This document shows, piece after piece, positions 1 to 42,000 of a DNA stretch of 64,000 nt. A program made the position numbers and the translations under genes. A model generated the notes under the pieces. The model was not told where the DNA came from, ran no database searches, and worked only from the letters and a program-made list of their open reading frames with translations. Position 1 is the first letter of the stretch, and the number at the start of each line of letters is the position of its first letter. Source of the stretch: Candidatus Omnitrophota bacterium (GTDB lineage: Bacteria > Omnitrophota > Gorgyraeia > Duberdicusellales > 4484-171); the NCBI GenBank assembly GCA_037146775.1, contig JBAWWL010000001.1:69464-133463 (forward strand), given 5' to 3'.

Positions 1-1
1 C

Positions 2-18000: not shown

Positions 18001-21000
18001 ACGCGATTATATAATGTATAGCGAAAGTGAGCTAGCGCATATTCATTGTGCATTAGAATTAACAAGATTTTTAATGAGCGGAGTAAAAGCGATTGATCTT
18101 GGTTCGGGCTTAGGAGGGAGCGTGGGGTGGATGTTTAATTGTGGCGCTGACGTCCAGGGTGTGGATATTTTAGAGGAAAATAACCGCTTAGCAGTGCAGA
18201 ATGATCAGAGATTGGAAGGGAGGTTATATACTGGACACATTGTCCGGCTTCCGCAATTTGCCGAAGGAGTTTTTGATATCGCCCTATGTCTTGATATTAT
18301 TTATCTTATGCCTTTACGTTTGATATTCCTTGCTGTGAAAGAGGCTGGGCGAATTCTTAAACCAGGCGGAAAGCTCGCTATTCATTCTCGTTATTCATGT
18401 GGCATGACTGAACAAACACATTTAGTTTCTTTTAAACAATGGGAAGACATTTCTCAAAGAGCCGGCCTTGAGCCCGAAGGAAATGATCTAAAATATATTG
18501 GTAATGACGGATTTATTATCTTTGGCCGTAAGAGACTTGATGTGTCTTTATCGCCAAGTGATTGCCGTCCATTTTCTCAATGTTCAAGCCCCACAGTTTC
18601 TGTTTCCGAAACACTGAGCGTCATTATTTTGCAAGATATGTTTAATACAACAGCAACAACGGATTTTCGCCAAGCTCATCATCCGGATTTAGCAGAAATC
18701 GAAGCCATGTATGATGCGAAAGCAGGCGTGTTAGGCGCTTATGCCAGTTCCTCGGTTGATTTCATAGAGCCCAAACCTCTTGGGCGGTTATTGTTTCATT
18801 CGGTCATGAATAGCTCTATTTCATTTTCTGCTTCAAGCGCTATATCTGCGTTACAGCGTTCATTTAGAGGGCAGACGCCGGTTTTATGGCTTGAGCTAGG
18901 CATGTCTCAAGGAAAGTATTTTGCCAAGCTTGGTGAGATTAGCGAATTAGCAATGGTTTTTAGCAAGGTAGCTAATAAAAAAGGAAAATACTCCGAAGAA
19001 GGGAAATATCTTGTCGAAGTTTTAGACGATGCCCTGAAACATACAAAAGTAAAAGGCAATCCTGTTTGGTTAAAGGCAACTAAGAGCTTTTCTGATATGT
19101 TAAAGGGTGCCTTTGCCGCGCCTGTTGAGGGGAAATATCCCCTTTATCCTTGTACCAATCTTGCCCATCAGGCTTTGATCGAAATGGTGCGGCAGTGGCC
19201 GAAACGCGAACGGCACACGCACGTGACCATGTCTATTTCACCATTAATGGTAATAGGTGAACTTAAAGAATTGCAATCGTTACCAGGTTATCGAACAGCT
19301 CTTTTAAATAAGTTTAAGCAATCAATTTCTAATCAGCCAAAGAAGGAAGACGCGCATAGAACATTTTATGAATTGCTGCAGAAGTCTAGTGATTGGCGTG
19401 ATTTGCCGGAAGATGAAGTATGGGAATTCATGAAAGACACGGGTATTCGTGATGATTATTGGATGGATTTACTTAAGCAAGATGATTACATAAAGGTATT
19501 AATAAGGCTTATCGTTGGGGTTGTCAGACAGAATTTTACTGACGGTATTACTGATCTGGAGTTACGTTTTAATCCCTTCAAGCCTTTTGGCGATAAAACC
19601 GTTGGCTGGAAAGAAGTAAAGACTTACCTAGAAAAATTAACCGAAGCAATTAAAACTGTCGAAGGAGAGGCTGACGCGGCTTTTGGACGCAGTCACCGGG
19701 TTTCCTACATGTTTTCTTTTAATAGAAGAGGCATGAGAAGAATTGATATCGCAAAAAAAGGTAAACACTTCAAAGAGGTTAGAAAAGAATGGAAAAGAAA
19801 ATTCTTTGCCCTACGTGTTTTAAGAAGAAAATGTGATCCTGAATTAAAAAATCGTTTAAACGGTATTGATATTTCTGGGGGTGAGCCTTTTGATGGTTTA
19901 GCTAAAGTTACGGTTGAGGATATTACGCGGGATTACGCTTTAATTTGGTTAGCCAACCAATTAAAAAAATTAAAAGAACAGGGTTATGAGATAAGCATGC
20001 ATTTGGGCGATTTTACTGCTCGAAGGCCTCCGGATGATCTTGATGGCCATATTGTATTTATCAGGGCTCATCTTGAAGCTTTAGAAGGTATTGTTGACAG
20101 AATAGGCCATGGTAGGATGCTTACTCCCGGAATGGTCCCTGTATGGGGTAAAGATAGTAAATGTTCATGGAAGAAGGTGTCTGAAACCTTAAGCCTTTTA
20201 GACGATTTCAGACAGAAGTATCCCCAGGTTATTATTGAAACAACACAAGAAACAGATACACAGGATTTAGTAATTTTACGGGAAAATTATCCCAACTACT
20301 GGTGGTATGAAAATGATTATAAAATGGAGATAGTATATGGTTCGGATGGTCTTTATACTAATCCGCCTACTACTTTGTCGCAGTGGCTTGTGCGATTGAT
20401 GTTGGCATCGCCTACACCCATGTATCCTTCGCAAGGAAGAATTAATGGCATTACCGTTAAGCAAATGCACACTGCGGTATCCAGTCCTGTATTGCCAAGA
20501 GAAAGATTGGGCCATGCCTTGCCGGGTATAGTCAACAAAGTTTCGATAATTAATGGAATTACCTCTCGCGGACCGCCGGAGCAATTTGAAAGTGTAACCA
20601 GCTCGCCCGCTACCGCTAAAGTAGATGTCAATGAAGTTGTGCGTGATGCGCTTTCTGTCGGCCAAAAAATCCAATTAGCATTTACGGAAAACCAATTGCG
20701 GGTTGACGTGCAATATTATAGAGGCCGCTTGCCGAAACTTTCTATAGACCGCAACAAATTACAATCTGCCATTTCAGAGGTATTCTGGAACGCAATAGAT
20801 CATTCCCCTCGAGGAGGAACAATAACCGTAAGAGTATCTTTGGAAGGTCGTAATCCCGCCAAAAGGAACGTAATAGTTTTTATTTTTAATCAAGGCGTGG
20901 GTGTAGACATAGCGACAATAGTGCGGTCAGCTCTTGGTTTAGGAGTGATCTCAGTCGATATGGTCAGCCAGCTTTCTATGCAAGATAAGCTAAATTTGGT

Positions 21001-24000
21001 TTTTGAAGAACATGTTACCACGAAGGAAAAAGAGATTGGTGGCTTAGGTTTATTTCTTGCCCGCCAAGACATTGAAGGCTGCGGCGGTACCATTGAAATA
21101 TATTCTACACGAGGTGTTGGGGTGTTAGTTGCGATAGTTTTGCCTGTTAAGACAGGAGCAAATTTAGTGATTTCGTCGGATAAAAAAATAAGTTCGCCTA
21201 TCGCAACGTATCAGAACCATTCTTTCAGGCAGCATTGGCCGGTAATAGATGAAGAAAAGGAGCGCAAACAAACATTCGAGCTGGTTTTTAAAGTATTTAA
21301 CCGCGCTGGCTGGTTTATTCCGGATTTAAGAGAGGCGCAGGCCTTATGCGAAGAAGCGCTTGAACTTTATCCCGCAGAAATTGACTTCTTAGAGATTTTA
21401 GCAGAGATTTATTATCGTTTAAGAGAATACAGACGCATAGTTACCTTGCTTGAACCGGTCGTTGCAATTGATACTGCATATTTACGCTGGTTTGAATGGC
21501 TTGCTAGGGCGGAGGAGAAATTAGATAACGATCACGGCGCGATTATGTATCGTGAAGCGATTGCACAAAGAAATCCTTCTGATAGTGGCAATAACCATCG
21601 TTTGAGTTCGTTATATTCCCGCACGCAAAATCGTAAAACCCGTAGCTCCTCACCAAGCGTAGTTTTAGATAATTTTTTTGCCGTTTCTAGTCCCCTGCAA
21701 CAAACTAAACCCTGGAAGGGTCAGGAGTCAATTACGCAAGTGGCCGAGCGAGCGCTTGAATTATTTCGTAGCCAACCTTACCGTAGTATTTGGCCTGCGG
21801 ATGCTCATTTGATAATAGATACAGGATTCTCCGAGCCGCAAATACTTAAATATCGCAGCCAAATAAGGCAGGAAGTTTTACGTTTAGCTAGCCTCCAAGA
21901 GGATTATTACCGGCGCGTTTCGCTGGAATTAAGAATCATTTTTGCTAACCAGTGTCAACTCAAACAAAAAGGAAAAGGTTGTGTTGACCCGCTGCTTTTG
22001 GCCGTATCTATATTAACTGCGGCAAGAGACCGGCTGCAGCCTACAGAATTAATCCGAGAAAATTTAATTTTACGCTCATCCCGAGTGGCCGCGATGCTTA
22101 AACGGGCTTATGATGATGGTAATAAAGATATTGTCATGGCCAAAGAACAATTACTGCATACAAACACCGTACTTTTTGAGTATATTAATTATTGGTTGGC
22201 TAGGCTATTCTTAGAGGCACGTATTTTTGATATTGAGCAAATTATTGTTTCTTTTAACCAAAAGGGAATTAAAAGCGTGCAGCTGGCAAAGGGAAAAGCA
22301 ATTGAAGAGCAAATGATGCAGGAAACCACCAGAAAACATGTCATTACTTTATTTGAGGCTATTGCCAGGCTAAAAAGTAGCGATCCCGATTTGTGTGGTA
22401 TTGTTTTGTTGAATGCCAGGGATGCGCAAAGATTGACCGGCGTTTGCACTGTAGCGCAGCGCGAAACCTGGGAACCGATGAATGACTTGCTCACGCAGGT
22501 ATTTTCAGCCGGCCCGGAAAAATGTGGTCCGGATAACGATCCTTTACGTAAAGCCGCAGAGCATTTACGCGCAGCCGCTGATATCAAAGGAAAAACCTGG
22601 CGGGTGGCCATTGCCGGACAGAAAAAAGGTTACACGCATACCCACACCGCAGTTGCGCAAGGGATAATTCTAGCCGTAGAAAAGATAGTTGTTGCTGAGC
22701 ATAGGGTTGAGCCGCGCACCTTTACTTTTACCCGCGCCAATATAGAAGAACTCTTGGAAAAATCATGTTTTCATCATCTCGAAGACGGCGGTTTGAGCGT
22801 TTTGGCGTCAGTGAAGCAGTGCGTGGATTACGCGCTTTCTGATGTTATACCGGAAGACCAAAACAGCGACCAGTATTATTGGTATTTATTAGGCCAAAGC
22901 TTAAGAAGGCTTCGGGCGAATATAGTTATTGTTGAACAAGGCTGGTCAGATGCGCGTTTACAAGGAGAAGAAGGTATAGAGCATTTAATACAATGCTCTG
23001 CTAGGTTTGCCTGCGATTTATTCTTACGCGAACCGCAGCGTAGTATCTGGCCAGGTGCTGAGAGGTTGATTCAAGAAACCGGACTTAACCCTGCGCATAC
23101 GTACAAATATTCAGAAAGAATAGAAGAAGAAACATTGATGTTAGCAAAAGCTGCGCCAGCGCAAAGCCGGCGTAGCCTCATCCAACGTATTTCTTTCGCC
23201 ATTCATTATTATCGCATGAATAAACTTAAACTTGCCGGAGTGAAGGGTTGTACTGATCCTTTGGTGGTAGCAAGAAAGATAATAGCTGTTACTGCCAGAG
23301 AAGTACGCGCTGGAAGAATAATTGCCGAAAAAGAAATAGATTTAAGGCGTAATCATATTGAAGTCGCTGCGCAATTAGGCAGAAACCTGCTTTCTAAAAA
23401 ACATGCCCATGAATTGATATGCGCTATACATTTCTGGATGGTATTATTTTTCCAGGAACCTTCCGTATATGGGGTAGAAGAGGAAGTTAGTGCACTTACC
23501 TCAAGAGGCGTTGAGAGATTGCGCATTCAATTTATCCGTAAAAACGAAGAGCCTGTCCAAACAGCAAAAACTTTACATCACCTTGAGACAATACTGGCTT
23601 TAGCAATATTGGCCCCCGAAACAGATGTCGTTCAGGCAGTAGCTGGGGTTACGACACAGGTTGTATTAGCTGTTGATGCGCCTGAAGTTATAATACCTGT
23701 TGATCTAGGGACAGTTTTAGAAGATAGTGTTTTACCACCGTCCCCTGCAATCGCTCCGGCTTTAGGCGCTGCTGTTCTTGTAACTGAATCTTTTAGTGGT
23801 CAGATTCCCGCAGAAGTCATCGCGGCTAAACCAACCCTGGAAACTCAAGTCTTAACAGAACCAGCCACCGTATTAGCTGCAGTTACCAAGGATGAAGTTC
23901 GTGTTCCAGGGCAAGCCGGCATAGTTCCTTTAACTAGCCAACCGCGTTTAGTGGCAATAAATAAGCCGGAAAACGTTATGGTTGGCAAAAAATTTACGAT

Positions 24001-27000
24001 TATAGTTGAAATTTTAGATGTACAGGGAAATCCTGATGTAAAAGTGAGAGAGAAAATTACTTTTGAATCAAGCGATAGTGAAGCAAGCTATCCCACTAAA
24101 CCATATTATTTTACAAAACAAGACCAAGGCCAGCATGTTTTTAGTATAACTTTTGGAACTGTGGGGAGACAATGTTTGATTATCGCAGATTCCCACGATC
24201 ATTCATTAACTTTAAGTTTTGCGGTGGAGCCTACCTTAGAGCAAAGAACCGCATCTGAAGTTGAGCCCGTAGCGCATGTCCATGAATTTGTGAGCATTTC
24301 TCCCGAAACTCAGGCACAAGAGAGGTTATCGGGAGAAAATTTAAAAATTATGCAGGCAGGTATTGAGCATTTGCGTAGAGGCTGCACGAATATTATTATT
24401 ATGGGGAAAATTAAACTGATTGAAGAAGCCTTAGTTATGATTCATATCATGCAAGCCTTTACTCGAGGCCTCTGGAGTAGAACGGAAATTCGTTATGGTG
24501 GAGGAATGACAGAGGCGAATGTAAGAGAAGCATATCTGGCAATGCGTCATGATATTGAGGCCGGCGAAACCGATAACGTAATGGAAGGCACTCGTATCTC
24601 AGGTATTTTTTCAAGAATTGAGGTAATAGAAGATGGATTAAACCGCTCTATTGGGGTATTGCCGAGATCCATGGATTCGCTTGAACAGGTGTATTCAGTA
24701 ACCTTAGAATTACTCCGCGCAAGGGTCCCGCATCGAGAAGGCGAAGAAGACCCGATTTTAAATTTTATGTGCACTCTGTTGCTTCTTGAGGACCGCCGCT
24801 TACGTGATGAAGAATTAACCGTTCAACTCCAGAGAGCTAAAGAGCGCGTTATTGAAATAGCGCTTGAGGCCTATGGTCATGCTAGGTTAGCTATTGCAAG
24901 CGGTAATTTTTTGAAATTAGATAATTTACACGTGGCACTTACAAAAAAATGTGAAGAACTGAAAGCTTCTTATCAGATAGAGATGCGCGGATCATGGGCC
25001 AGTATTGAAAATATCTTTGAGCAGGAAAGAATAGAGATTTCTGAAGCTAATCTTGCTGGAGCTTTGGGAGAATTTATCGGAGATTCCATAGAGGTAGATC
25101 TAAAAATGACCTATTGGTTTTTAGCTATCCGACGTAGTTGGCGCCAAGAATTATTTCTTTTTGTCAGAAGCAGGGGTGATTTTATCCCAGGGTGTGTAAA
25201 TATAATGGAAGCGCAACCAAATCGTTCCGCAAAAAAGAAGAAATTACATCAGCCGGTTACTACTAATCAACTTATTGTTGTATCCGGAACAGAAGGCTTT
25301 AGCTATTTTCAGGTTTATAAACGCACTCTTTTAGTCAGTGATGGCAGTAAGGTGAGGTTGTTTAGGTTGGATGATCAAACTGCGGTTTTTGAACAAGTAT
25401 TGATTAATCCTTCGCAGTCCCAAAAAGGAGCGCCTTGCGGGCAAAAATTGGGGATTTCTGCGAAGGAGGCAGCCACCGGCCTGCCGCTTGTTACGACGAG
25501 TCCGCGGGGTTCCGCTGGTAAAAATGATATTCCGGAGTTAGTAATATCTCAAGATATTCCGCCGCAAAGGCGTAAAGACTTATTTGAAATCACCCTTGTC
25601 GGTGGAGGGATCTTGAAACTTGATGAAAACGGAATTATCCCTGCACTTAAAAAAGCGGAAACTCGGCACCATTTAATGCAGGACGAAGCTTCTTCCCCCA
25701 TATCTTACGAAAAGGAAAATTTTTCGCGCGCGCTTAAATTACCAAAGCCAATGCGGGTTATACGTATTGTTTCGGCAATAGCTATACCTATAATCGCAGT
25801 TATACTTTCCGTATATTTTGGCGGCTATTATATTTTATTAGTGGAATCAGGATTTTTTAGTTCCTTAGTTACCCAGACGATTGTTGGAGGTTTATCTCTT
25901 GGCTTTGGGATGTATATTGAACAGTCTTTGCGGGGAGCACTCCTGAGTCGCACTAATCTTGGAAAAATAATGCGTTTGACATTATTCGGCGGGCTCTATT
26001 TGGCAATTTTTGTCTTCGGAGCGTGGTATTGGTTTTTAAATAATTATGTTCCCAGTGTATTCTGGAAAGTTTTCCTTGACCTTACCTTATTTGCTTTTTT
26101 TGTCGTCATTCCCTGCAACTTTTTTATCTATAAATATTTAGTTTGCCTGAACCGGGAAAAAATGGATTTGTGCGAGACTTTAAAACGCGCATTACAGTAT
26201 TTTGTTTTTAACGCTCTTTGGTGGGGTTTATGGCTTGGAATAGGATGGGCCTATTATCCTCAGTATATTGTTCTTATCGCGGTTAATTCCCAGATTCTTT
26301 GGTCAGGATTTATGATGTATTGGCTTGAATCTTGGATTGAGGCAGCACATAAAGAAAGTAAAGCAGGGAGTGCTGCTAAAGATTTACGCCAAGGAAATAG
26401 ACAAAATCCAACCGCTAGTTCCCCGCATACATCTTCCTCTCCGCTTTCTTTAGGTATACCAGAGTTTTCATTGCCTTTATTTAATGGGCCGGTGTTTATC
26501 AATAAACAGCATGTATATACGGAGACTCCTCCAGACATAGATATGGATGATTTTTTAAGCCGAGCTCCTAATTTACCAAGCTTACAGGCTTTACGTTTAT
26601 CCCGAATGCTAGAGAAGGCAGGATTTGCTGGTGATGATGTAGTGGTTAATGGGCAAAGGCGTATTGTGCTTATGGGTGGGATAGTTGAGCTCTGCCTGGT
26701 AAAAGAATTTGCGCGTATAGCCATGAGAGCTGCCCAACAAGAGGAAAAAGTAGAAGTGCTAATGTCTTTGGACACGCTTGTGTCCGATGAGTTGATATTT
26801 GTTGGAAACGAGAGGAAATTTCTAAAGCGTTATTTTTCTATCACCGATTCCGAAAGCCCCTACATTACAATCTTAAATATCTTGTGGCTTAATTACGCTA
26901 TTGTAATTTTGCAAAGCGATATGGTAATTGTCGGAGAAAATCAAAAAATAGTCATCCGTATTTTTTCTAAAAAAGAAGATTTATTTGAATATATAAGAGA

Positions 27001-30000
27001 TACTTATGGGCAACTTGCTAGCTCTTCAGTTCTTCAACATTATCCGGTTGAATTTTATTGGAATAGAAAAGAAGTTTATCCGGTTGCTTGGGGTGATTTT
27101 AATGAACCTGGGCATAAATGGCTTGAGGTTCCGGTATCAAATAGGATTAATTTTATGCCAAACGTGGCACAATATATCCGTTTTATCGAGCTTCTAGAAG
27201 GTTTGGGTATTCATACTGGTTTCAACGATCCAAACAGCTTAAGAACTTTACAAGGAAATCCTTGTATTCTGGGTGTTGTTGGTAGCCCAGGCACCGGAGC
27301 AAAACATCCCGCCATATCATTCTTGAAGCCCGATCAGCCAACCAATATTGTTATTGTTCAGCTTGGCGATGTTGCGAGCTTGAGCGATGAAGATTATATT
27401 AACGGATACGTTGTGGCTAAACGCAGGCAAGGAGCAGTAATTTTGTCAGCGCACTTAGTTACAATTGACGCGGTGCTTTGTTATGGCAGAGACAGTCAAG
27501 GGCTAGATATATTTGAGGTTGTTTTGCCTTCTTCTGGCGCAAAACTTATCTCCAGTAAAACATTTCCAGTAAATGGAATAACTAGCTCGCCGCTCAATTC
27601 TCACCCAGTACTCAGTACTCAAGACTCACGACTAAATAAAATCAGTTCACCGCTATCAAGTAGGCGTTCCGGCATTTCCCGCTTTAAAGACGAATTAGCT
27701 GAATGTGAAAAGTTTAGCGGGCTTTCTACTTTGTATTCTCAAGGGGTGCTTGGGCTTCAGCCCGAAGACGAGAGTATTTTTTCTCAAGTACCGCGTGCGG
27801 GATATTTTTATGAATTCTGGTGGCCAAGTACGTTTAAAGGGCCAGAATATTTAAAACTATGGAATATGGAACTTTGTTGGAATGGTTATCAAATTGCTTT
27901 TGGAAATATTAAATTTGTACCCATAGAGAAAGACGGCCGCCAGGGTTATGCGGTTTCGCTGTATACGTGTGACAGTTATGTATTCTTTACCGGTTTCGGT
28001 TTCGTTTATGATTTATTTGCCCGCATGCTTTTACGTTCTTTTGATATTGCCAGAATCCAGGGCATTGGTCCTATTATGAGGTTGGACAGGTATTATCATT
28101 CCGGAATTGATTTATCGCGCGACAGGGATGAGAAAAAATATGTGCATATTTTGCATACTTTGGGTTTTGATAAACATTCCACGCGTTTTGGCTATCTTAG
28201 AATAGATGACCGCGGATGGATGAGTGCTCGGCCGCAAGATTTCTATGCGGCACTTCGCACAAAAAGGCGTGAACTTTTTTATGCAAAGCGAGCCCAAAAA
28301 ATGCTTGGTAGCGGTCAAACGCCCAGCTTTTTAGATTGGATGTCAGGAGAATGGAGAAACGAGAGAGCTATCGAAAGTGTGCATAACGAAGTAGCTCTTA
28401 ATATGATATGTGAACAGCTGCGTGCTCACGCAACAGAAGTTAATCCAGATATCTTTTCAAGAGTAATAAGTAGGCAAGTTTATTTAAGCAGCCGGCCGGT
28501 TTCTTCGGCGATTTCGATTATTCCGGATAGCGCAGAGATTAACCGTATTCATAATCAATTCAGCGGCGAATTCGTCCGTAAACTCATTGTGTGGCGGCTT
28601 GATGCCGCAGGACAAACACGCGCACATACCTTAGATGTTTTGGTATACAATCAACTCGATACTCAGGGCAAAGAAATAATGAAAGAATTACTTAGTCACT
28701 GGCCTCGGGAAGCAGAAATACTTAGCAGACTTAATGATTTGTTGAGTTGCTCTATAGATCATCGTTATCGCAGTAGCCATCTTGATTTTCAGGCGGCATT
28801 TGAATTATTGGATACTATCGGTAGAAGTTCAGCGCTCATGGTTACACATGCCGATGTTTTAACTACTATTCTTTCTAATGAGGAACTCGGTAAAGAATTA
28901 GAAGCGTTATTGTTGTCAGCATTGTCTATCGCTCGTCCCGTTCCTCAAGCAATTACCGATCAGCTTCCTTTGGTTGATGATGCTTATCTTGCTGTTTCAA
29001 AGAATGAAGCGGGCAGCATTGAGGCGGTAGAGTCTATAGTTTTTGTTTCGTATGGAGGAAGTACAAACACGGTTTTTCTATGGAAGAATGCTCCGCATAA
29101 TTCGCTTATACCTTTATGGTTTGAGAAAGGATATATACAAGTTTCTGGTTTGTATCGGGATTTTGACGTAGGCAGACAATTAGTTGCTTTTGCTGGAGAG
29201 TCTGCGGTAGGCGCTGACAAAAATATGGAGTTTTTGCTTTCAGGATTTGCTGCTGATGAAGCATTAAAATCAATGGGTTTTCGGCGTGGAATCAGCACCT
29301 ATAATACAGCCGAAATTAGGCAAGTTATCACAGCATTTTCTCGCGCTACTGCTGGGAAACTACACCAAAGCGTGTTGGCAGGAGATACAGAAGGCCTGCA
29401 ATTACTTAATACTTTGCTTCGCAACGCTTCAAGCTCGCCGCTCCAGAAAAAGCCTCAGGAAAAATTTAGTGCAGATTCTGGTTTCTCTCCGCTTGATGGC
29501 TCTTCGAAAGCCCCTGTTGTAATAAATAATCCGCGGCTTATCCGGGTTCATTTTGACGGTATTGCTAGATATGTTCCACAGGGACTGGCGGTTATTGAAG
29601 AACGAATTGCATCTTGGTTAAGACGTAATCCTATTTCTAGTCAGACAAGTCTTTTATACTATCCAAAGGACAACTTTTCGGCTCATGAAATTTTCACTAC
29701 AACCGGGTATATTCCGAATGAAGCTTTTTTAGGATTTGCCGAGAGTGAATTTATTTTAACCGGTGGGTCAATCGTCTGCTTAATTAACGCACTTTATTCT
29801 TTATGGACGTACTATGCTCGCAACGGGCAGGGTGTGCGTTTTATTGTCGCCCACGATTGTTGCTATGCCGTAGGTAAACCAGGCTACTTTTTATCTATCG
29901 TAAATGGTGATTCCCACGATTTATGGAAAAAGCCACATGAGGGGATTTTAAGAGATTTAGGTATTTTGTATTACCAAAACCGTATTGGCGGTTTTCCTGG

Positions 30001-33000: not shown

Positions 33001-36000
33001 ATTTATTCAGTGCATGCAGGCTGCTATTGATATCGCCCAGCATATTGTTACGCCGGGAGAACACGGTATTGATAAATGGTTTGGCCCGGATGCGGCTTTT
33101 GCCGTAGATTTTGAAATACCGGATTGTGCTTATGGTACAAGTGGGTCGAATGACTTAAGAAGTAGACTAGCCGCAATACAAACAAAAGCTGAATCTAGGC
33201 TATTAGTAAAAGCAGCGAAATTATCCTGGAAGCAACATTTTAGAATTGGGCGTAATTTAGGCTATACCAACTGTATACATTCCGGCCCCCTTGGCCCATC
33301 TTGGTCTCCTGGATCGGTTGCTTACGGTATAGCGGCTATTGGTGCCTACCATAAATTTATTCATAACTATAGTACGGTATTAGAAGATATGCTTGTAGGA
33401 AATGGCGAAGCTGTGCAATTGATGGCAAAATTAAGCAGACATATTCGTTCGCAAAGAGAACTTATCTATCAAGGAAACCTTCGTCGTTCAGAGGATTTTG
33501 TCGCCGGAGTTACTGTGCGGGAATGGCAGTGGGATGAAGAATGGTGTCTATACCCGGAATTAAATCTTCAGTATAACGCAGTAGTTAGCACTATCCAGAG
33601 AATAAAACATTTTGATCAGGTGGTTATGCGTATTATAGGTGATATTACCAGTGTTTATCGAATGAAGAGAGGAAAATTTTCCTCTTTACCGCAATGTGAA
33701 GAAGAGGCAATACTAGCGCGGGAATATCTTGATTACATAAAGCGCCAACATTGGGATAGCAGATATCCTTATCTTTGGCCGCCTGTGTATCGTGCGGTAT
33801 TTTTACTGGATTATTTAGGCAAATATATTGATTGTAACGGAGAATCCACACAGGAGATTATAAGAACCGGGCAGGCGCTTGATGTCGGTATTGAATGGCT
33901 TGCTACTAGTGGAATGGAGGTACCAAGTTGGTTTGTTCGCCAAAGAAAGATTATTGAGTTAGCAGAGCAATATGGTGTACCGCAAACTCCCAAAAAATAT
34001 TTGACCATACTACAGAAAGCTTTGCAAGAACCTACTCCTTTAGGCTGTGACCAAGTCTGGCACGCACCAATAGATTTTACAGATTGTGTAGAAACTAAAT
34101 CAGCGTCAGTAATCTCTTCGACAACAGAAAACATTGAAGAGCTGGTTGTTATCGGGGACGTACACGATAATGTATCTGGCTTAGCAATATTGCTTTCGGA
34201 TATACGCCAGTATTATCCCAGAGCTCGTATGATTTATTTGGGGGATTACGCGGATAGTTCTGATGACAAAGCTGATCCCCGGGAAACTGTACGGGTAATT
34301 AACTCTGAGAAGGAACAAGGATCGATACCTATTTTGGGTAATCATGATTTTGCCATATTGCGGGCAGTAAAAGGTGACAGAGAGAAATTCGTTTGGTGGC
34401 TGGATAATAGAGGAGTGCATACTTTTCACAAAATACTTCGTGTAACGCCTGTTTTTGACGTATCCGTTGCCGGAGCAGGGCTCACGGTTGACGAAAGCCA
34501 GGTAGCACAGGCGCTTAAAAAAATGCAAGAAAACGAATTTTTCCAACTTCTGGCGCAAAATTACAGTGAATTGCCTTTATTTTACCGTAATGATGCTTTG
34601 GGTATACTTTGCCTCCATACTGGGCCAAGCCTTGAAGTCAGACAGCTTAATATTGTACAAGACACCAAGAGCCTAGAGGTATTGAATCGATCTTATACGA
34701 TTAGAAATTATAATCAGCGGGATGTTTGGGAATTTCTCATGTATAAAGGATGGCATAATGTGAAAGAAGAAAAAGTTGAAAGAGCGTGTAAACTTTTCCA
34801 CGCGCCCTACCTCGTTCTGGGGCATATTATCCAACGTAAAGAACCGTTTTACCGGCGTATCGGCAATGCTTTTATGATCGATAATAATCTTCAAGGCTAC
34901 CTGTTTGTTTCTAGAGAAAGAGGAATAAGGTTTATACGTCTTTTGTCTGATTCAGCCCGCGATGAAATAGCACTGGTAAGTGCTTCCGAATACACCCAAC
35001 GTTTAGCTGAATTTAGGAATTTAGGAGATACCCACGCGTCTTCCGCAATAGAGAATTCACAACGCCCCGTAATGAAGAAAACGATAAGAGTAATGCGGCT
35101 GTTGTCTGTGGTAACAATACCAATAGCTGCGATTATGCTTTCATTTTATTTTGGTGGTTGGTATATTATCACGGTTAAATCAGGGTTTTTTACCGCTCTG
35201 CTTACGATGTCTATCGTCGGCGGTATTTCGCGTGGTTTGGGAATGTACGTTAACCAAACGCTTAAAGGAGAACATTTTAACCGTAAAAACGTAAAGAAGA
35301 TATTGCGTTGGGCATTGTTTGGAGGGTTGTATTTAGCGATATTTGTCTATGGTGCATGGTTCTATATTTTAAATACCTATATAACCGGCATTTTTGCGAA
35401 TATATATTTAGAGGCAGCTTTAAAAACCTTCCTTGATGTAACGCTGTTTGCCGCATTTGTCGGCCTGCCGGCAAATTTCTTTATCCACAAATTTTTGGTG
35501 TGTTTGAACAAAGAAGAAATAAATTGGAAAAATACCAAAGAAAAATTTAAAAAATTATTTATTTATAATGCCATTTTCTGGATTTTGGGATTAACTCCCG
35601 GATGGATTTGGTTTCCGCAATACATTGTCCTTATTGCAGCAAACTTGGGAATACTATATTCCGGCATATTGATCTATTATCTTGAGGAATGGCTAAGAAC
35701 TAGCGACAAGAAGGTTGCTAATAAAGTTTTTGTTCAGCCAAAAGATAATCAAGCCCCACATTCCAGCTCGCCGGTTTCAGGCAAAGAAAATATTAAAGCC
35801 AAAAAGCAGGGATTAAGAACTTGGTTAAGAAAGAATTGTATGTTAGAGGATTGTGATGAAGCGCTTAGGGAATATCAAACTCAGTGGTGCCCGGCTGAAG
35901 TTGCTTTAAGAAAAATTAATCGCGATATTGGTGTAGATTCTGATAGCCCACGATATCTTTATCGTTACAGAGGACAGGCTCTGATGTTTGACGAATTGTG

Positions 36001-39000
36001 CGTAGTAGCTACAAAAATAATGGAAGTAAAACATACAATCAGAAAAGAAATTGATTACTCTGTAAATGTTTGGGAGACCATTGAATTTGCTTTTGATATT
36101 GCGCGTTCAAGAAGCAAGCATAATTACCTTGCGGTTATTTTTGAATTGGTGCCTGGTAAGCATGGCGTAACGGGTTGTTCGACGCATCGTGATATTGATC
36201 CAAGAGCTATCCGCCGTGTGTTTGTCTATAACAAGATTACAGAGCATTTCGAAAGGGTTTACAAAAAATATTTAACACAAAAATTACGCCATGCCAGTTC
36301 ACCAAACGTTAATGATCCATTGGACAATCTTTTATTGGCAAGAATTGCTCTTGATGATGCTTTGGCCGATGAAATCAGCCTTTATGTGAGTAATTGTTTT
36401 GTTAACATAGGAATACGCAAAAAATTCAGAGGTAATCTTGAGTGGGTGAGAGATTGTTTGCAATCAATCGCAAAAAAGATAAAAGGTGGGCAGTATTCTT
36501 TACTAAAGGCAAAAAGTCGTATCAAGGAATTACAATTAGTTGACACGCTTAAAAATTTATTTCACCTTGTTTTAACAAGAGATAAAGATATCTTTTTGCA
36601 TTTAAGCGATGAGCAAGTCCGTAAGATGGCTGGTGATGATGGGCATCTGCGGGTTGCGATCGACTTTATGTTTTTATTTTCCGAAAGCTTAGCTTCAAGC
36701 TCTAGTGTTTTTGCACATGATTCTCACTCCATACTCCATACTCAATACTCAATACTAGATAAAGCCAGTTCATCCTTACCAGAAAATGCTTCGCCGCGCG
36801 CTCCTCCTGAGCTTGAGGATTTACTCAAAATAGAAACGGGTTTACCGCATTTACTTTCACAATTCTTCTTAAAGAACCGAGTAATACTTGCCTTATTAAC
36901 CGCGCTCACTCATGCCCTTGGATTTTTATTTCTAGGAATGGCAAAACATTCACTTTATCCTATGCAGCTTGCTTTTTGGCTCTTTTTCTTCAATTTATTT
37001 ACCGCCTGCATAGTATTTTATCTTTTAGCAACTAATAATAGCTCGCAAAGTACTTTTAAATTCTTTTTTAGTCTTTTTAAGGTGCTACGTAAAAAAGACT
37101 TTGTGCACCTATTTTTACCTTCATTTATTAATGTTATAAGTTCCATTATTTTATATTTCATTTTTCCTTATGTCCCTGGAGCAATCATACTGACATTTTT
37201 ACAATTAACTATGTTTACCGCACTTCCTTTAGCTTTGCTTTATAATGGCGAAAGAGAAGGCTGGGGGAGAAAGATTGTCGGTGTTTCTATAATTGCTATC
37301 TTAGGATTATTGCCTATGCTTGCCAGCGCCAGTCTTTTTAATTTATATGCTTTATATGGAATTGTCATCGGACTTATGTATGGATTGATTACTCCTTTTG
37401 GCCGCAGGCTTTATCAGGATGTATACCGCCGCGCAGTAGTACAAGATAAAGACGCGCAAACTTTATTTGTTAATCTTCCTTATTTTACCATGGTAATCAG
37501 CTACGCAGTGGGTTTGCTGGTTATGGCACTTACAGTATTTTTTATTTTTCCGACGCCGCTGCTTACTTTTCAAGGAACTTCAATAATTACCGGCCGTATC
37601 CTATTGCCATTTTTTATAGGGATTACATTTTTTATCGGTACCTGGATTTGTGCCTTAAAGTTGCAGCAAATGTTTACATACAATATTTCGAAATATTCTC
37701 CCCTGACTGCATCTGGGCCAATGTTCAGTAAGCTTATTGAGGACGGCATTATGCATGGTGGGCTACTGCATCTTGAAATGTACCCTTCGTTACTTCCACC
37801 GCTTGCGGTAATTCTGGGTGCCTTTATTGCCGCAACCGGAAAGAACAAGAAAGATCATCTTTCGCAAAATAGTATGTCAAATATCGCCAAACAACAACTA
37901 ACTTCAGCTAATTCAGCTTCTCGAAGCTCTTCGAGTGTAGGAGAATCTTTTGTGGCCACACCTACTTTAGATAAAAATACTTATTTCGTTGGCTCGCCGA
38001 GAGGCAATTTGGTAAGAATCTCTGTGTCTGTTTCAAAAATAAGAGCAGTAAATGCTTTATATCGTTCACAAACAGATCCTACGCCGTGTCAGGGAGAGAA
38101 AGCTTTAGCGCAATTGGCAGCTTTTCCCGAATTTCCACACAATTATAATTCGCGACTCACGACTTATGAATCACGACTAATCTTATTTAAGGCAGACCAG
38201 TTTCGTCGCATTGCGAGCGGGACGAGTTCCCCGCTTAGTTTAGAGGATTTGGATTTAACTACGCAGAGCTTACTCGGCGAAGGCAGTTACGGAAAGGTTT
38301 TTAAGGTATTTCAGCGCTGTGCCGACACAGTGTATGCTCTCAAGGTTTATTGTGGTAGCTACCCTCATCAGCCGGATGAGCGGATGCCTTTAATCGATTA
38401 TTTGTTAGATTTTTCTCTTCGATACCCACAACTAACCAGTCGCGGTGCTATGCCACGTTGTTATACTAAGGGAGAGTGTTGGTTGAAAGAAGATAGGATC
38501 GTTGAGGTACCTAACGGGTCTTGTGTTTATCCTTGTGTTATTATGGACTATATTCCCGGCGAGAGCTTAGAGGCGCGCTTAGGGCAGGAATGGCGCACAA
38601 GAGGGAGTTGGCAGCATTGGATTAGTATTCAAGACGCCGTCGAACGCGAGTATGCCGGACTTGCGCTTTTAGAAATATTCGATGTAGTCAAGGCGAAACA
38701 GCTTTCCATTATCAAGGAAAAATTGGAACTGGCATCACGTATCGCGCAAGCAGTCAGTGCTTTCCATGCGGCTGAGATAGTTATTAAAGAATTAAAACCC
38801 GACCATATCATCTTAGGACCAGAGGAAGCGATAGCTTTGGTTGATCTTGAAGGTGCAGTTCCGGTTCATTATGATTGGCAGGAAAACTCGCGTAATATTC
38901 CGCGGGCAGTACGTCGTACACACACAAGAGGGTTTTCGGAAAACCCTGTTTTGCTACGTAGCGATGACCCTACTGTACTGGGAGAGCTAAAAACCATGCT

Positions 39001-42000
39001 TACCGAGCAGTGGGATATTTATAGTTTCGGAATTGTATTGTTTGAAATGGTAGATGTTGTTACCGCGTTGACCTGTAAAAAAACCAGCGACGGGGGATAT
39101 AGAGAGGTTATGCCATTGACGCGGATAAGAGATGAAATAGACAGTTTAAGAAGAAGCCATCCTTGGGGCGACATTAATGGTGTGCTTTTAGAGATTTATT
39201 CTGTGATTGAACGCTGCACTACACTTGAACGCTCACTCCGCTATAAAACGCTTATTGAGGTTAGCGATGACTTGCGGCTATTGGCTGCACGATTGGCTCT
39301 ACAGATAGAACCAATCGTATCAAGATATTCAGCGCAGCGCATTGTGGCTAAGAATGAAGATGGCTGCGCCAGTTCACCGCTGCAAGACTTTATCTATCAA
39401 GAACTAGGAATTTTTGGTCCAGGAGTTGTTTATCCGAATAAAGTAATTTTTGTGGTTGGGCCTAGCGGTTCTGGAAAATCAACCCTAGAAGATGAATTGC
39501 TTAAACGGTATCTAGATAAATTTATTAAGCCGGATCGGGTCAGGAATAGGCTGCCCAAGCCGGGAGAAGAAAAAAGGAATTCCAGGGTATTTGTTTCTGC
39601 CCAAGAATTTATGGCTCGAGAAACGAGCGGAAGAATTCGTTTTGCCACTCAATTACGCGGTAATTGGTATGGATATGATGTTTTTCATCTGCTAGAGGCA
39701 ATGAGATCAGGTAAAACTATGCTTGTCTCAGCTCATGGAATTTTAGATCGCATACGGCCTTATTTTCCTAATAATATGGTAGTGGTGATTTCATCCGTAG
39801 ATTTAAATATCACCACGCAAGGGCAATTACAAGATGCAGTAGAAAGGAGGATCCACGCTCGTAGTCGCACCATTTCCCAGGAAGAGGTCTCATCGCGACG
39901 TAAGGAAGCTTTAATATATCTTCCAAAACCATCCGAGTGGGAACAGGTTATTAATCCAGACGGCCGGCTTACGGAGGCGACCAATAGATTTATAAAATTA
40001 GCAGAGCAATTTATTCAACAAAGACGAAAGCAAAAAGCACTAATTCTTGATTTAAATCATACCTTGTATAATCCGGATGCCTTAGGCGTGACCAAAGCAT
40101 ATCGCGAGGCAAGAAGTGAATTTTTATCCCAAGAATTGCAATGTACTCAAGAACAAGCTAAGGAACGATATCGGCAAGAAAAAGCGCAACTTAAAGCAGA
40201 AGGAAGAGGCGCTATCAGTGTGGAAGTTTTACAAAGATTAGGTATCAATCCGGCCAGGTGGGGTGAGGCTGTTATCACAAAACTGGATTTTGGCGGCCGC
40301 TTCGCAGGACAACTTAAGGAAGATGTGCGATTGCAAGCAGTGCTTACCAGTCTTTCTCAAAAGTATTATCTAACCTTAGTGACTACCAGTGTAGCGGAAT
40401 TTACAGAATTGATACTTAGCTCTTTGGGGGCAAGGCATTTCTTTGATTATATAACTACAGGTTCAGATATTCCTATGCTAGCTAAACCTGATCCAGAACT
40501 GTATAGAATGGTTTCTCGTGCGTTAGATGTACCGATGGAAAATTGTTTAGTAGTCGGAGACAGTGTAGACAAAGATATAGAACCGGCGCAAAGAGCAGGG
40601 GCAAAGACATATTGTATAAGCGGTCAGCAGGATATATACCGCATAGACGAATTAGCCGGAAAGTTATTAGGAAAAAGTGGGTGCGCGGTCAGTTCATCTA
40701 TAAAACAGTGTATTAATTGGAACTTGAAAGATTATATCGATTTACCACAGACACGGCAGGCAATGGGGATTCTTCTAGCTGATAAATATGTTTTTTTCAG
40801 TCGTAACCACAAAGCCAAACCGCAGCAATTGTTATTTCAATATCGATGTAGCTCTCCCGGCTCCTTAAGGTCTGATTTGCCGGCTCAAGCGGTAAGGCAA
40901 AGTTTACAAGCCGCTATTTTGATTCGACTAGAGCAACATGATAAAAAACGTGTTTTTGTTATAAGGTTATTCGGGCCTCCGGGTTCAGGCAAGACCGAAG
41001 TGTACACACCTTTTTTAATGCATTGGTTAGGACAAGAAAACCTTAAGATAGCACATGTTACTAGTTTAGGTAGTCTCGAGGCAGAGCTTTTAGAGGTGAT
41101 GGTGCACGATATAGATGTTTTAATAGTTGAAACTAGCGATTATGAATTTAGGATTAAAGATTTAAAAAATGTTGATTTTTCTATAAGACTTTCTAGTAGT
41201 CGGCAAAGCAGAGAAGAACATCTTAGGCTAGATGGAATCGGCGGTGAAAACTTAATAAGACTTTTAGATAAAGGCGACAGAGTCCAGGCGAAAGGCCTCA
41301 ATTGGCAAGATCCAGATATTATTATTGATATCGATAGCGGTGAAATAAGAGGAAGAAGGCGCGTAACTTTATCGTTGGAATATTTAATAGAGGAAATCCT
41401 TAGGGATTTTCCTCTTGCTACTAACGCCGAACTTGCTAGAGAAATCAAACAACAATATGGCTTGGAAGTTGAAAGGGAATGTCCCGATTTTTATGGCCGC
41501 GTAACGGTGCTAAGAAAGGCGGTAGATTTGGATATGGGTATAGTAACCAGGACGTTTGTAGTCCATGCACAGACTGGTCAGCATCACGAGGCGGTGATCG
41601 CGATTGGAACAGACGTAGTTAATCCTCTAACCGGAGAGCTACTGCCAGAATCTGAGTGTAATGGTCGTTTATTAAGACCAGATTTGTATGGCCCATCATA
41701 TGTTTCGGCCAGATTATCGATAGGAAGAGTAAATAACCTATGTGAGGGTAGATTTGTGTATCGTCTACAAGACTGGAATGGTCATCCGAGTATTGAAGTG
41801 CATAGTGTGTTTGTAACATTGCACAACCAGCATGTTTTTGGAGATAAAAGGTTATATAAATTCGTGGGGGCCAGATTGATGCAGACAGCAGCCATCATAA
41901 GCAAAAATAATTCTCAAACCCAAGGAGCCTTTCATCTAAGGTCTTTAAAGCTAAAAGCAGAGGCTCAAGATTTTTATACTGCATTTGCCGATTACGGACT

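Follow-up and report, generated by a model that had tools for sequence, protein, structure and literature searches.

The DNA analysed here (the window) is a 64-kb stretch that is spanned from end to end by a single stop-free frame on the forward strand. The frame comprises 21,333 codons and is open at both ends, whereas each of the other five frames contains 827–1901 stops. A coding-type codon-position bias with a G-rich first position is present in 21 of 21 3-kb intervals, and more than 15 Pfam domains lie along the full length of the window, all in the one frame. Searches of the 64 kb for Rfam families, tRNAs and tandem repeats were negative. Only the extreme length of the frame would favour the view that it is open by chance and non-coding, mis-assembled, or made of several genes wrongly merged. 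The missing stops, the uniform codon-position bias and the shared frame of the domains all argue against such an artefact, as do comparable stop-free ORFs with homologous modules in independent Omnitrophota MAGs and metagenome contigs, and we regard it as extremely improbable. The 22 kb under study (nt 19150–41420) is an internal stretch of one gene of at least 64 kb.

Long unannotated spacers separate the modules of this segment, and about 80% of it has no recognisable domain. The modules are, in order, an adenosine-deaminase-like (ADA-like) module, a CheA-type ATP-binding domain, a six-helix transmembrane (TM) module, a radical-SAM core, a PPP/ApaH-like metallophosphoesterase, a second copy of the TM module, an eight-helix TM cluster, an ePK-like kinase, a guanylate-kinase-like (GK-like) kinase, an HAD-IA hydrolase and a P-loop NTPase (Table 1). 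The motifs quoted in the earlier note were all confirmed in position, in the forward frame that starts at nt 2. Its HATPase_c, metallophosphoesterase, guanylate kinase and HAD calls are borne out by Pfam matches above the curated cut-offs, the Guanylate_kin match being marginal. The note had described every domain as individually recognisable; this holds for the four Pfam families, but the ADA-like module has no HMM or PDB sequence match and the proposed P-loop kinase is a generic NTPase. The same coordinates also hold the ePK-like kinase, the radical-SAM core and three TM blocks, all of which the note had missed. No module of the segment reached an NCBIfam equivalog cut-off.

Table 1. Features of the window, with residue numbers in the giant ORF and nucleotide positions in the window.
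Feature	Residues	Nucleotides	Strand	Basis or remark
Giant ORF		1..64000	+	codons start at nt 2; contains nt 19150-41420
Adenosine-deaminase-like amidohydrolase module	6385-6800	19154..20401	+	fold search and motif conservation
Orphan GHKL ATP-binding domain, CheA/histidine-kinase type	6916-7050	20747..21151	+	HATPase_c 44.5 bits (Pfam)
TM module copy 1	8552-8808	25655..26425	+	six hydrophobic helices as three hairpins (hydropathy)
Radical-SAM-like core	10154-10300	30461..30901	+	CSFGCDDC (CxxxCxxC) at aa 10159, nt 30476
Calcineurin-like metallophosphoesterase, PPP/ApaH-like	11382-11609	34145..34828	+	Metallophos 30.4 bits vs 21.5 cut-off
TM module copy 2	11669-11924	35006..35773	+	repeat of copy 1
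Polytopic TM cluster	12294-12550	36881..37651	+	read as eight helices, four hairpins
ePK-like Ser/Thr-kinase module	12747-13100	38240..39301	+	Pkinase 38.5 bits vs 31.7 cut-off (Pfam)
Guanylate-kinase-like P-loop kinase	13147-13335	39440..40006	+	Guanylate_kin 28-29 bits vs 25.2 cut-off, marginal
HAD-IA hydrolase	13345-13540	40034..40621	+	Hydrolase 59.7, HAD_2 55.9 bits (Pfam)
P-loop NTPase module	13621-13800	40862..41401	+	Walker A GPPGSGKT at aa 13658; Walker-B-like DVLIVE at aa 13705

The ADA-like module, whose homology to its relatives covers about aa 6269–6826 (nt 18806–20479), carries the motifs RHTHV (within ERHTHV at aa 6403, nt 19208), ELRFNP, GIDISGGEPF, HLGD, RIGHG (aa 6700) and YGSDG. 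It gave no match in Pfam, NCBIfam or PDB sequences, including PF00962 and any PDB deaminase. Its AF2 model (pLDDT 63.5, pTM 0.66; last strand poorly modelled) nevertheless has a predicted (beta/alpha)8-like fold, and almost all of its top 29 Foldseek matches in the PDB (E as low as 8e-6, TM 0.3–0.4) are adenosine deaminases, members of the amidohydrolase superfamily, such as Cad1, RdrB and the Plasmodium, human and mouse ADA. The first-strand HxH, the His of HLGD, the His of RIGHG and the Asp of GSDG follow in the order expected for zinc and catalytic residues and are conserved in all full-length homologues, which are 40–45% identical and keep all the motifs. The module differs from ADA, Cad1 and RdrB in the missing sequence-profile match, in having Asp for the Glu of HxGE (HLGD) and Gly for the second Asp of TDD, in lacking a CARF or other sensor domain, and in its setting, a giant ORF here and a stand-alone gene in two of its relatives. 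It recurs in one partial Omnitrophota ORF and in two giant ORFs of unclassified metagenome contigs, which stay open over at least 3,769 and at least 4,415 aa.

The ATP-binding domain that follows aligns with the PDB CheA P4 domain at 38 bits. Its N box (NAIDHS) and G2 box (GGLGL) are readily seen; the G1 box reads NQGVG, with Asn in place of Asp, whereas its homologue at the Omnitrophota locus L004 retains DNGKG in the alignment. No DHp/HisKA domain or His box was found upstream of it. The radical-SAM core scored 17.6–18.3 bits with Pfam Radical_SAM, under the 29.5 cut-off, and 27 bits with NCBIfam TIGR04317. All six PPP-type metal ligands are intact in the metallophosphoesterase, which contains GDVHD (aa 11385), GDYAD (aa 11414), GNHD (aa 11446), LHTGP and LGHI. 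In the PDB it aligns weakly with RLPH2, PP1 and an ApaH-like enzyme, the three N-terminal motifs being in register, and there is a weak NCBIfam match to ApaH (22 bits).

The two copies of the six-helix TM module are 49% identical, and the same module stands beside a GK-like domain in another protein (P0084). Over the three TM blocks, 52 Lys and Arg residues lie in the flanks and inter-hairpin loops versus 2 in the short hairpin turns (15 and 0 in copy 1, 20 and 1 in copy 2, 17 and 1 in the eight-helix cluster). Judged solely by their hydropathy and by the positive-inside rule, the blocks would be helical hairpins with both flanks cytoplasmic. Published topology predictors disagree on such giant proteins.

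Like the kinase domains of PknB/Stk1 and LanL, the ePK-like module has a Gly-rich loop (GEGSYG, aa 12759), a VAIK-type Lys (Lys 12781 in ALKVY), LKP, a Mg-binding Asp and the subdomain IX motif DIYSFG (in EQWDIYSFG). The catalytic loop reads IKELKPDH, with Glu 12930 for the HRD Asp and His 12935 for the usual Asn, and the DFG position reads DLE (Asp 12948). Throughout its family [IV]K[DE] stands at the HRD position, Glu and Asp alternating at the catalytic residue. Further differences from PknB/Stk1 and LanL are a long insert between the hinge and the catalytic loop and a distribution that is so far almost confined to giant or partial Omnitrophota ORFs. In a search of 1.84 billion representatives its best matches were partial ORFs from Omnitrophota MAGs; alignments with Omnitrophota proteins show 26–37% identity, and the nearest relatives 30–39%. 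All four strong GTDB loci for the module are from Candidatus Omnitrophota MAGs, three of them stop-free over 6–21 kb. L004 is a comparable mosaic, with Pkinase, a methyltransferase and a HATPase_c domain 38% identical to that of the window.

The GK-like module resembles guanylate kinase and PhnN in its P-loop, its NMP-kinase-like alignment to solved guanylate kinases (41–44 bits) and its lid arginines. The Walker A motif GPSGSGKS (aa 13153) is intact, and PKPGE and GNWYGY are present. The residues that bind guanine and GMP are not kept: S34, Y50, E69 and S80 of yeast Guk1 align with R, R, F and Y. The NCBIfam scores for PhnN (44.8 bits) and guanylate kinase (44.2 bits) compare with equivalog cut-offs of 156–160, and the module belongs to a divergent subgroup whose members occur as tandem copies and as parts of large multidomain proteins.

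In the HAD module, motif I (DLNHT) keeps the nucleophile Asp 13350 and has Asn 13352 for the general acid/base Asp at +2, whereas 10 of its 11 closest homologues have DxDxT and the remaining one (P0013) has DLGNT. Motifs II (TTS), III (K13495, in KPDP at aa 13495) and IV (GDSVDKD, aa 13519) are present. Its best NCBIfam match is TIGR02253 (86.6 bits, under cut-off), followed by pyrimidine 5'-nucleotidase (50 bits). The last module has two homologues (P0028 and P0096). PDB profiles match it at Walker A only (APS kinase, 24 bits), and its AF2 model (pLDDT 55) leads Foldseek to generic P-loop NTPases (SRP54/FtsY, MeaB, Fap7, PRK). A P-loop kinase identity for aa 13621–13800 was not confirmed, given the resemblance of the model to generic P-loop NTPases and the limitation of the match to the Walker A surroundings.

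The earlier note took the fusion into a membrane-embedded giant protein to be unprecedented. The protein is giant and membrane-anchored, but such proteins have been described from Omnitrophota. This gene matches a known kind, the membrane-anchored multi-enzyme giants of Candidatus Omnitrophota, where giant proteins contain HATPase_c, HAD_2, Radical_SAM, methyltransferase, HEAT and kinase/phosphotransferase domains together with many TM helices (bioRxiv 10.1101/2023.11.21.568195; bioRxiv 10.64898/2026.06.07.730766; PMC10066038). They include the 39,678-aa type example from Velamenicoccus archaeovorus (PMC10066038), the Omnitrophota giants called Archaeovorins (West-Roberts et al. 2023, bioRxiv 10.1101/2023.11.21.568195) and a "multi-enzyme metabolic cluster" class (Nielsen & Lui 2026, bioRxiv 10.64898/2026.06.07.730766). 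The window shares with them an ORF of tens of kb, a TM-helix share of about 2% of residues, a wide variety of enzyme domains with none dominant, the common repertoire (here with HEAT/TPR), and divergent domains set in long "dark" spacers. The nearest homologues of its modules lie in giant ORFs, those of the kinase-like module being from Omnitrophota MAGs; the link to Omnitrophota is drawn from identities of 30–45% at the level of single modules. In contrast to these giants, no SecA_DEAD, C39, NUDIX, glycosyl-transferase or glycosyl-hydrolase domain was seen in the 21,333-aa window, and its module set and order (ADA-like, PPP-like, then kinase, GK, HAD and P-loop) were found in no other protein. 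SecA_DEAD and C39, reportedly common in Omnitrophota giants, may sit outside the window. None of the collections searched contains a close relative of the window (best module identity 35–45%), and no database protein covers two of the segment's modules in the same order. The modules recur elsewhere in other combinations, their order shuffled between proteins.

We conclude that the segment is probably a series of cytoplasmic enzyme modules on one chain tied to the membrane, and that it is not well read as a single coherent nucleotide pathway or as a toxin or defence system. The TM hairpins would tether the chain to the cytoplasmic membrane and place all large modules of the segment on its cytoplasmic face, where ATP, SAM and reductant would be on hand. 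The modules would be independent, co-localised phosphotransfer and hydrolase enzymes rather than successive steps in one nucleotide pathway. The catalytic residues, which the note had proposed to check, gave a divided picture: many motifs are intact, but the HATPase, kinase, HAD, GK-like and ADA-like modules are altered. Because catalytic residues are changed, several modules probably have altered or reduced activity.

These substitutions at canonical catalytic positions in five modules, the scarcity of recognisable domains in the segment and the high divergence reported for domains of such giants would also suit decaying, largely inactive enzyme folds that serve as a structural or binding scaffold of a fast-evolving surface or contact protein. 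We consider this quite improbable. The kinase keeps its Gly loop and Lys, the HAD module its nucleophile and motifs II–IV, the radical-SAM core its Cys triad and the metallophosphoesterase its PPP-type metal ligands; both Walker A motifs are intact, and the His/Asp ligands of the ADA-like module are kept across homologues. The family-wide alternation of Glu and Asp in the kinase suggests a tolerated variant rather than decay. A signalling relay, in which the HATPase, the Ser/Thr kinase and the two phosphatase-type domains sense membrane contact and regulate the giant protein or the cell, is unlikely. The HATPase_c, Pkinase, PPP-like Metallophos and HAD domains are all there, the polytopic TM cluster precedes the kinase, the order Metallophos, then kinase-like module, is shared by an Omnitrophota relative (P0001), and a published co-occurrence module groups HATPase_c with HAD as "signal-transduction/regulatory" content. 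The defining parts of the relay that the note had envisaged are nevertheless absent: the HATPase domain has no upstream phosphoacceptor region of the DHp or His-box kind and has Asn for its G1-box Asp, the whole window yielded no receiver domain, and the kinase has Glu for the HRD Asp and His for the usual Asn.

The note's leading theme was the interconversion or depletion of nucleotides, as in toxin, defence and effector systems. Such an effector would turn the ADA-like, GK-like, HAD and ApaH-like modules against the nucleotides of prey, host or a phage-infected cell, and it draws on the proximity of the ADA-like model to ATP and adenosine deaminases (the defence enzymes Cad1 and RdrB among them), on the pyrimidine 5'-nucleotidase match of the HAD module, on the weak ApaH likeness of the metallophosphoesterase and on the predation role proposed for Omnitrophota giants. 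However, the four modules occupy a span of 7,400 residues in which the radical-SAM core, the protein kinase and the TM blocks also lie, their NCBIfam matches all fall far under the equivalog cut-offs, the GK-like guanine site is lost and the HAD general acid/base Asp is missing. PADLOC returned no defence-family match for the ADA-like, HATPase, HAD and P-loop modules, only generic Ser/Thr-kinase similarity and marginal 12–20-bit matches; no toxin-delivery or immunity feature was seen, nothing specific to a toxin or defence role was found, and relatives do not keep the module order. The nucleotide theme picks selectively from a mosaic. Elsewhere the ORF also encodes HEAT repeats and methyltransferases, as well as an M23 peptidase, B12/radical-SAM domains, an RmlD-like reductase domain and an L-serine dehydratase (180 bits). 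We therefore hold a nucleotide effector to be very unlikely.

The two stand-alone relatives of the ADA-like module are genes of ~600 aa (P0153 and P0154). The N-terminus of P0154 is signal-peptide-like, and in the P0153 ORF a comparable hydrophobic stretch precedes the called start. Against the cytoplasmic reading, this hints that members of this family may function outside the cytoplasm.

The + strand frame opening at nt 2 runs for 21,333 codons across the 64,000-nt window with zero stops and is open at both ends; the other five frames contain 827–1901 stops each. We used G-richness of the first codon position as a coding signature and found it in all 21 consecutive 3-kb windows, domain-free stretches included, and scans of the window for Rfam families, tRNAs and tandem repeats returned nothing that interrupts the giant frame. 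Thus, the segment at nt 19150–41420 (aa ~6384–13807 in the giant ORF frame) is an internal third of one gene longer than 64 kb. Because this frame runs off both window ends, an ORF listing of the window yields just two short antisense ORFs. They lie inside the giant gene at 5014–5691 (−) and 26260–26775 (−), exceed 150 codons (225 and 171 aa), and probably result from its codon composition. GC skew is positive along the entire window.

The earlier note had read the segment as a cluster of nucleotide-metabolism or signalling enzymes, and every motif string it quoted is present at its stated place. When overlapping 1,000-aa tiles were scanned with Pfam at curated cut-offs, the HATPase_c, Metallophos, HAD and, marginally, Guanylate_kin assignments held, whereas the adenosine deaminase (ADA)-like region has no HMM match and the proposed P-loop kinase is a generic P-loop NTPase; a protein kinase-like module was missing from that list. 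NCBIfam matches of the segment modules all fall far below equivalog cut-offs. About 80% of the segment is without a recognisable domain, and a phmmer search of the PDB with the 4,330-aa unannotated stretch (aa 7051–11380) gave no match. Since the same ORF also encodes a serine dehydratase, methyltransferases, an M23 peptidase and an RmlD-like reductase, among others, the proposed nucleotide cluster is a slice of a far broader enzyme mosaic. Self-comparison of the giant protein further revealed internal duplications. The L-serine dehydratase is by far the best-conserved module of the window. The radical-SAM motif at 52532 is preceded by a weak B12-binding-domain match, and a further weak B12-binding match lies at the window 3′ end (~nt 63548–63871), both scoring below the gathering threshold.

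Modules and internal duplications of the giant ORF, with window coordinates, residues in the giant ORF frame and supporting scores
Feature	Window nt	Strand	Residues (aa)	Support
HATPase_c		+	6916–7050	Pfam 44.5 bits, above cut-off; N box NAIDHS, G2 box GGLGL
Radical-SAM core		+	10154–10300	Pfam 18 bits, below cut-off; canonical CxxxCxxC
Metallophos, PPP/ApaH-like		+	11382–11609	Pfam 30.4 bits; cut-off 21.5
Pkinase		+	~12892–13081	Pfam 38.5 bits, above cut-off
Guanylate_kin		+	13147–13291	Pfam 28–29 bits, barely above 25.2 cut-off
HAD/Hydrolase		+	13345–13539	Pfam 59.7 bits, above cut-off
Six-helix membrane module, duplicated (257 aa)	25655–26425; 35006–35773		8552–8808; 11669–11924	Self-comparison, 49% identical
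L-serine dehydratase, complete (SDH_beta + SDH_alpha)	14774–16132			180 bits
HEAT repeats	elsewhere in giant ORF, outside segment
DOT1-like and class-I methyltransferases	rest of giant ORF
B12-binding/radical-SAM units, at least two further	rest of giant ORF
Radical-SAM CxxxCxxC motifs, canonical	30476; 42686; 52532			All Pfam scores below gathering thresholds
ART-PolyVal ADP-ribosyltransferase, weak match	55301–55699	+		25 bits, below cut-off
Peptidase_M23	59120–59380	+		62.9 bits
RmlD/epimerase-like reductase	61751–62476	+		69 bits
Internal paralogues	9752–13384		3251–3590; 3820–4139; 4313–4461	41–71% identity
Internal paralogues, DOT1-like methyltransferase region	17255–17737 vs 50684–51160		5752–5912; 16895–17053	35% identity
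Internal paralogues	46310–47539 vs 57935–60664		15437–15846; 19312–20221	38–59% identity

A check of catalytic residues divides the modules: the phosphoesterase ligands, both Walker A motifs and the HAD nucleophile with motifs II–IV are in place, whereas the HATPase G1 box, HAD motif I, and the guanylate kinase (GK)-like and ADA-like sites depart from their families. In the HATPase_c domain the G1 box reads NQGVG, where CheA and a homologue at an Omnitrophota locus (L004) have Asp (DxGxG). The domain is preceded by a Ser-rich linker, and neither HisKA/DHp nor Response_reg matches anywhere within the window. A histidine kinase assignment was rejected, given the missing DHp domain and the lost G1 Asp. 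In the phosphoesterase, GDVHD, GDYAD, GNHD and the later His ligands LHTGP and LGHI leave all six PPP-type metal ligands intact, and the N-terminal motifs align weakly, in register, with RLPH2, PP1 and an ApaH-like enzyme. This ApaH-like N-terminus scores 22 bits in NCBIfam against an equivalog cut-off of 176, and we rejected the label ApaH (symmetrical Ap4A hydrolase) on that score. The Cys triad of the radical-SAM core is intact.

The kinase-like module resembles the LanL and PknB kinase domains in NCBIfam and has the Gly loop GEGSYG, the VAIK-type Lys in ALKVY and the DFG/Mg-binding Asp in VDLEG. Its catalytic loop, IKELKPDH, departs from HRDxKxxN, the HRD Asp being replaced by Glu and the Asn by His; Asp and Glu alternate at the HRD-Asp position across relatives in this family. 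The neighbouring GK-like module aligns with PDB guanylate kinases at 41–44 bits with Walker A intact, and NCBIfam scores it equally as PhnN (44.8) and guanylate kinase (44.2; cut-off 160). At the positions of the yeast Guk1 GMP/guanine binders S34, Y50, E69 and S80, numbered on a yeast reference sequence that agrees with the PDB 1GKY alignment, it has R, R, F and Y. A strict guanylate kinase was rejected on this loss of substrate residues. The divergent GK-like subgroup to which the module belongs also occurs in tandem arrays of two to three copies in four database proteins (P0068, P0143, P0095 and P0080).

In the HAD module the nucleophile and motifs II–IV (TTS, K13495, GDSVDKD) are intact, and motif I, DLNHT, is missing the second Asp (general acid/base). 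Ten of the 11 closest homologues have DxDxT there, and the remaining one, P0013, has DLGNT. The nearest NCBIfam model is TIGR02253 (86.6 against 169.75), followed by pyrimidine 5′-nucleotidase. The GPPGSGKT module has Walker A and Walker B (DVLIVE) motifs and two homologues, and it matches known structures around the P-loop only (APS kinase, at the Walker A level). Its model, of low confidence (pLDDT 55), brings back both P-loop GTPases and small kinases, Fap7 and PRK among the matches. We therefore call this module a P-loop NTPase and do not carry over the kinase label.

Neither a single-sequence nor a profile query with the ADA-like region finds a match in Pfam, NCBIfam or the PDB; in the PDB, phmmer and the profile returned chance matches alone, such as plexins. 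It has homologues at 40–45% identity, and the full-length ones keep RHTHV, ELRFNP, GIDISG-EPF, HLGD, RIGHG and YGSDG. An AlphaFold2 model of moderate quality, built on a four-sequence alignment (pLDDT 63.5, pTM 0.66), is a TIM barrel nearest to adenosine deaminases: Foldseek against the PDB retrieves these almost exclusively (Cad1, Plasmodium, human and mouse ADA, and RdrB), with E values of 8e-6 to 1e-3 and TM scores of only 0.3–0.4. The motifs for the putative zinc ligands (HxH, His, Asp) and a putative catalytic His occur in the expected order and are kept in homologues, their equivalence being set by motif order and predicted strands. The catalytic Glu of HxGE is absent: the window and both full-length homologues have HLGD instead. 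On this model we accept a predicted ADA-like amidohydrolase fold, but not membership of PF00962.

The same module occurs inside two other giant ORFs on metagenome contigs (open for at least 3,769 and at least 4,415 codons) and in a partial ORF of an Omnitrophota MAG (P0155). Two stop-bounded, stand-alone genes of ~600 codons (L001, 51–1796; L002, 98–1900) are homologues of window 18806–20479, on contigs of lower GC (35–38%). The modules neighbouring it here are conserved in none of these relatives. Of the two stand-alone homologues, P0154 has an N-terminus (MKIVKLIILIIFLFNSSAYS/LD) that resembles a Sec signal peptide, which hints at a possible extracytoplasmic role for the family; in the ORF of the other, P0153, a comparable hydrophobic stretch precedes the called start.

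Hydropathy identifies ~24 strong helices across the window, the three TM blocks of the segment among them. The duplicated six-helix module has no Pfam family and recurs in an unrelated protein, P0084, where a GK-like domain directly follows it. Across the three TM blocks we counted 52 Lys and Arg residues in the flanks and inter-hairpin loops versus 2 in the short hairpin turns. By the positive-inside rule, we infer from this sequence pattern that each block consists of helical hairpins with both ends cytoplasmic. The soluble modules of the segment would then all be anchored at the cytoplasmic face. This placement fits modules that require ATP, SAM and reductant, and it matches the "TM-only" class described by Nielsen & Lui. 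The signal-peptide-like start of P0154 does not fit the cytoplasmic placement inferred for the ADA-like module in the giant protein, where no TM helix lies between the module and the ATP-binding domain 120 residues further on.

No close relative of the window was found in GTDB genomes, JGI metagenomes, IMG/VR (searched with window-derived peptides) or a word-indexed protein collection, and word-indexed searches with the kinase–GK–HAD–P-loop block and with the P-loop module alone gave no match. An exhaustive HMMER search of aa 12801–13900 against 1.84 billion representatives gave 1,700 matches, each covering one module; the best, to the kinase-like module at 32–39% identity, are partial ORFs from Candidatus Omnitrophota MAGs. 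A pattern scan of GTDB species genomes with the kinase-family alignment found four strong loci, all of them in Candidatus Omnitrophota and three of them stop-free across the whole 6–21 kb fetched. The L004 locus, with 42% GC like the window, encodes a similar mosaic of GH77, MutS_V, SEC-C, Pkinase, methyltransferase, Exo_endo_phos, GDSL lipase and HATPase_c, the last 38% identical to that of the window. Conserved module synteny was rejected, as no database protein shares two modules in the same order; the exception is P0001, where Metallophos loosely precedes a kinase and the phosphoesterase shows no detectable orthology. The giant protein is a beads-on-a-string chain of autonomous enzyme-type and membrane modules that are shuffled between proteins.

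Proteins of this kind are known from Omnitrophota, with lengths of up to 85,804 aa (West-Roberts et al., bioRxiv 10.1101/2023.11.21.568195) and 147,155 aa (Nielsen & Lui, bioRxiv 10.64898/2026.06.07.730766), and most Velamenicoccia genomes have ORFs longer than 20 kb (Seymour et al., PMC10066038). These giants combine many different enzyme domains, HEAT_2, HATPase_c, Radical_SAM, TPR and HAD_2 being among the commonest, with numerous TM helices; a "signal-transduction/regulatory" co-occurrence module of methyltransferase, HATPase_c and HAD, and "kinase/phosphotransferase clusters", have been reported (bioRxiv 10.1101/2023.11.21.568195; 10.64898/2026.06.07.730766). Like them, the window ORF is of giant length (criterion, >10,000–30,000 codons), has TM helices and is an enzyme mosaic, sharing HATPase_c, HAD, Radical_SAM, methyltransferase, HEAT and other families. 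Unlike many of them, it has neither SecA_DEAD nor an N-terminal C39/S8 peptidase (common, not universal features) within the window, both gene ends lying beyond it. The fusion, which had been called unprecedented, therefore belongs to a kind already published (bioRxiv 10.1101/2023.11.21.568195; 10.64898/2026.06.07.730766).

We favour reading the segment as a membrane-tethered rack of independent phosphotransfer and hydrolase modules; its identity is likely, whereas our confidence in its topology and activity is considerably lower. Two other readings concern parts of it. A regulatory role for kinase/phosphatase pairs is a partial alternative that we regard as unlikely. Structural decay of some modules is another alternative, also rather improbable. 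Several modules of the segment carry non-canonical catalytic residues.

That the segment is a nucleotide-depleting effector, in line with the toxin or defence theme raised in the earlier note, is very unlikely, because nothing defence- or toxin-specific was detected and the substrate-defining residues are not conserved. PADLOC gave generic Ser/Thr-kinase similarity and marginal 12–20-bit matches alone, with nothing among its defence families for the ADA-like module, and a defence or toxin system was rejected on this lack of a specific match within the window, beyond which lie the C-terminus of the gene, where a toxin tip would sit, and any adjacent immunity gene. A long shot is that the ADA-like module (~560 aa, aa 6269–6826) might be a profile-undetected branch of the adenosine/ATP-deaminase superfamily with an HLGD Asp-for-Glu variant. 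Omnitrophota-like bacteria might then use it in two forms, secreted on its own and built into giant proteins, and together with the neighbouring phosphotransfer modules it might alter or deplete host or prey nucleotides in episymbiosis or predation.

Giant bacterial genes of this kind are functionally unexplained, so each well-dissected example is useful. The segment leaves the current picture of Omnitrophota giants unchanged, corrects the view that a fusion of nucleotide-metabolism enzymes here has no precedent and offers defined constructs for biochemistry. The enzyme modules of giants are reshuffled from protein to protein and also occur as stand-alone genes, and hairpin membrane anchors are reusable, being duplicated within one protein and common to different proteins. 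The interest of the segment lies not in a nucleotide-metabolism cluster but in an ADA-like family invisible to Pfam and other current profile libraries, an Omnitrophota-restricted kinase variant and a reusable hairpin anchor. Outside the segment, an unannotated stretch of ~210 aa (window 13463–14098; aa 4488–4699) is 32% identical to positions 10961–11620 of another homologous locus, L006, and is a conserved "dark" module; its L006 counterpart directly follows a kinase-like module in an Omnitrophota giant ORF.
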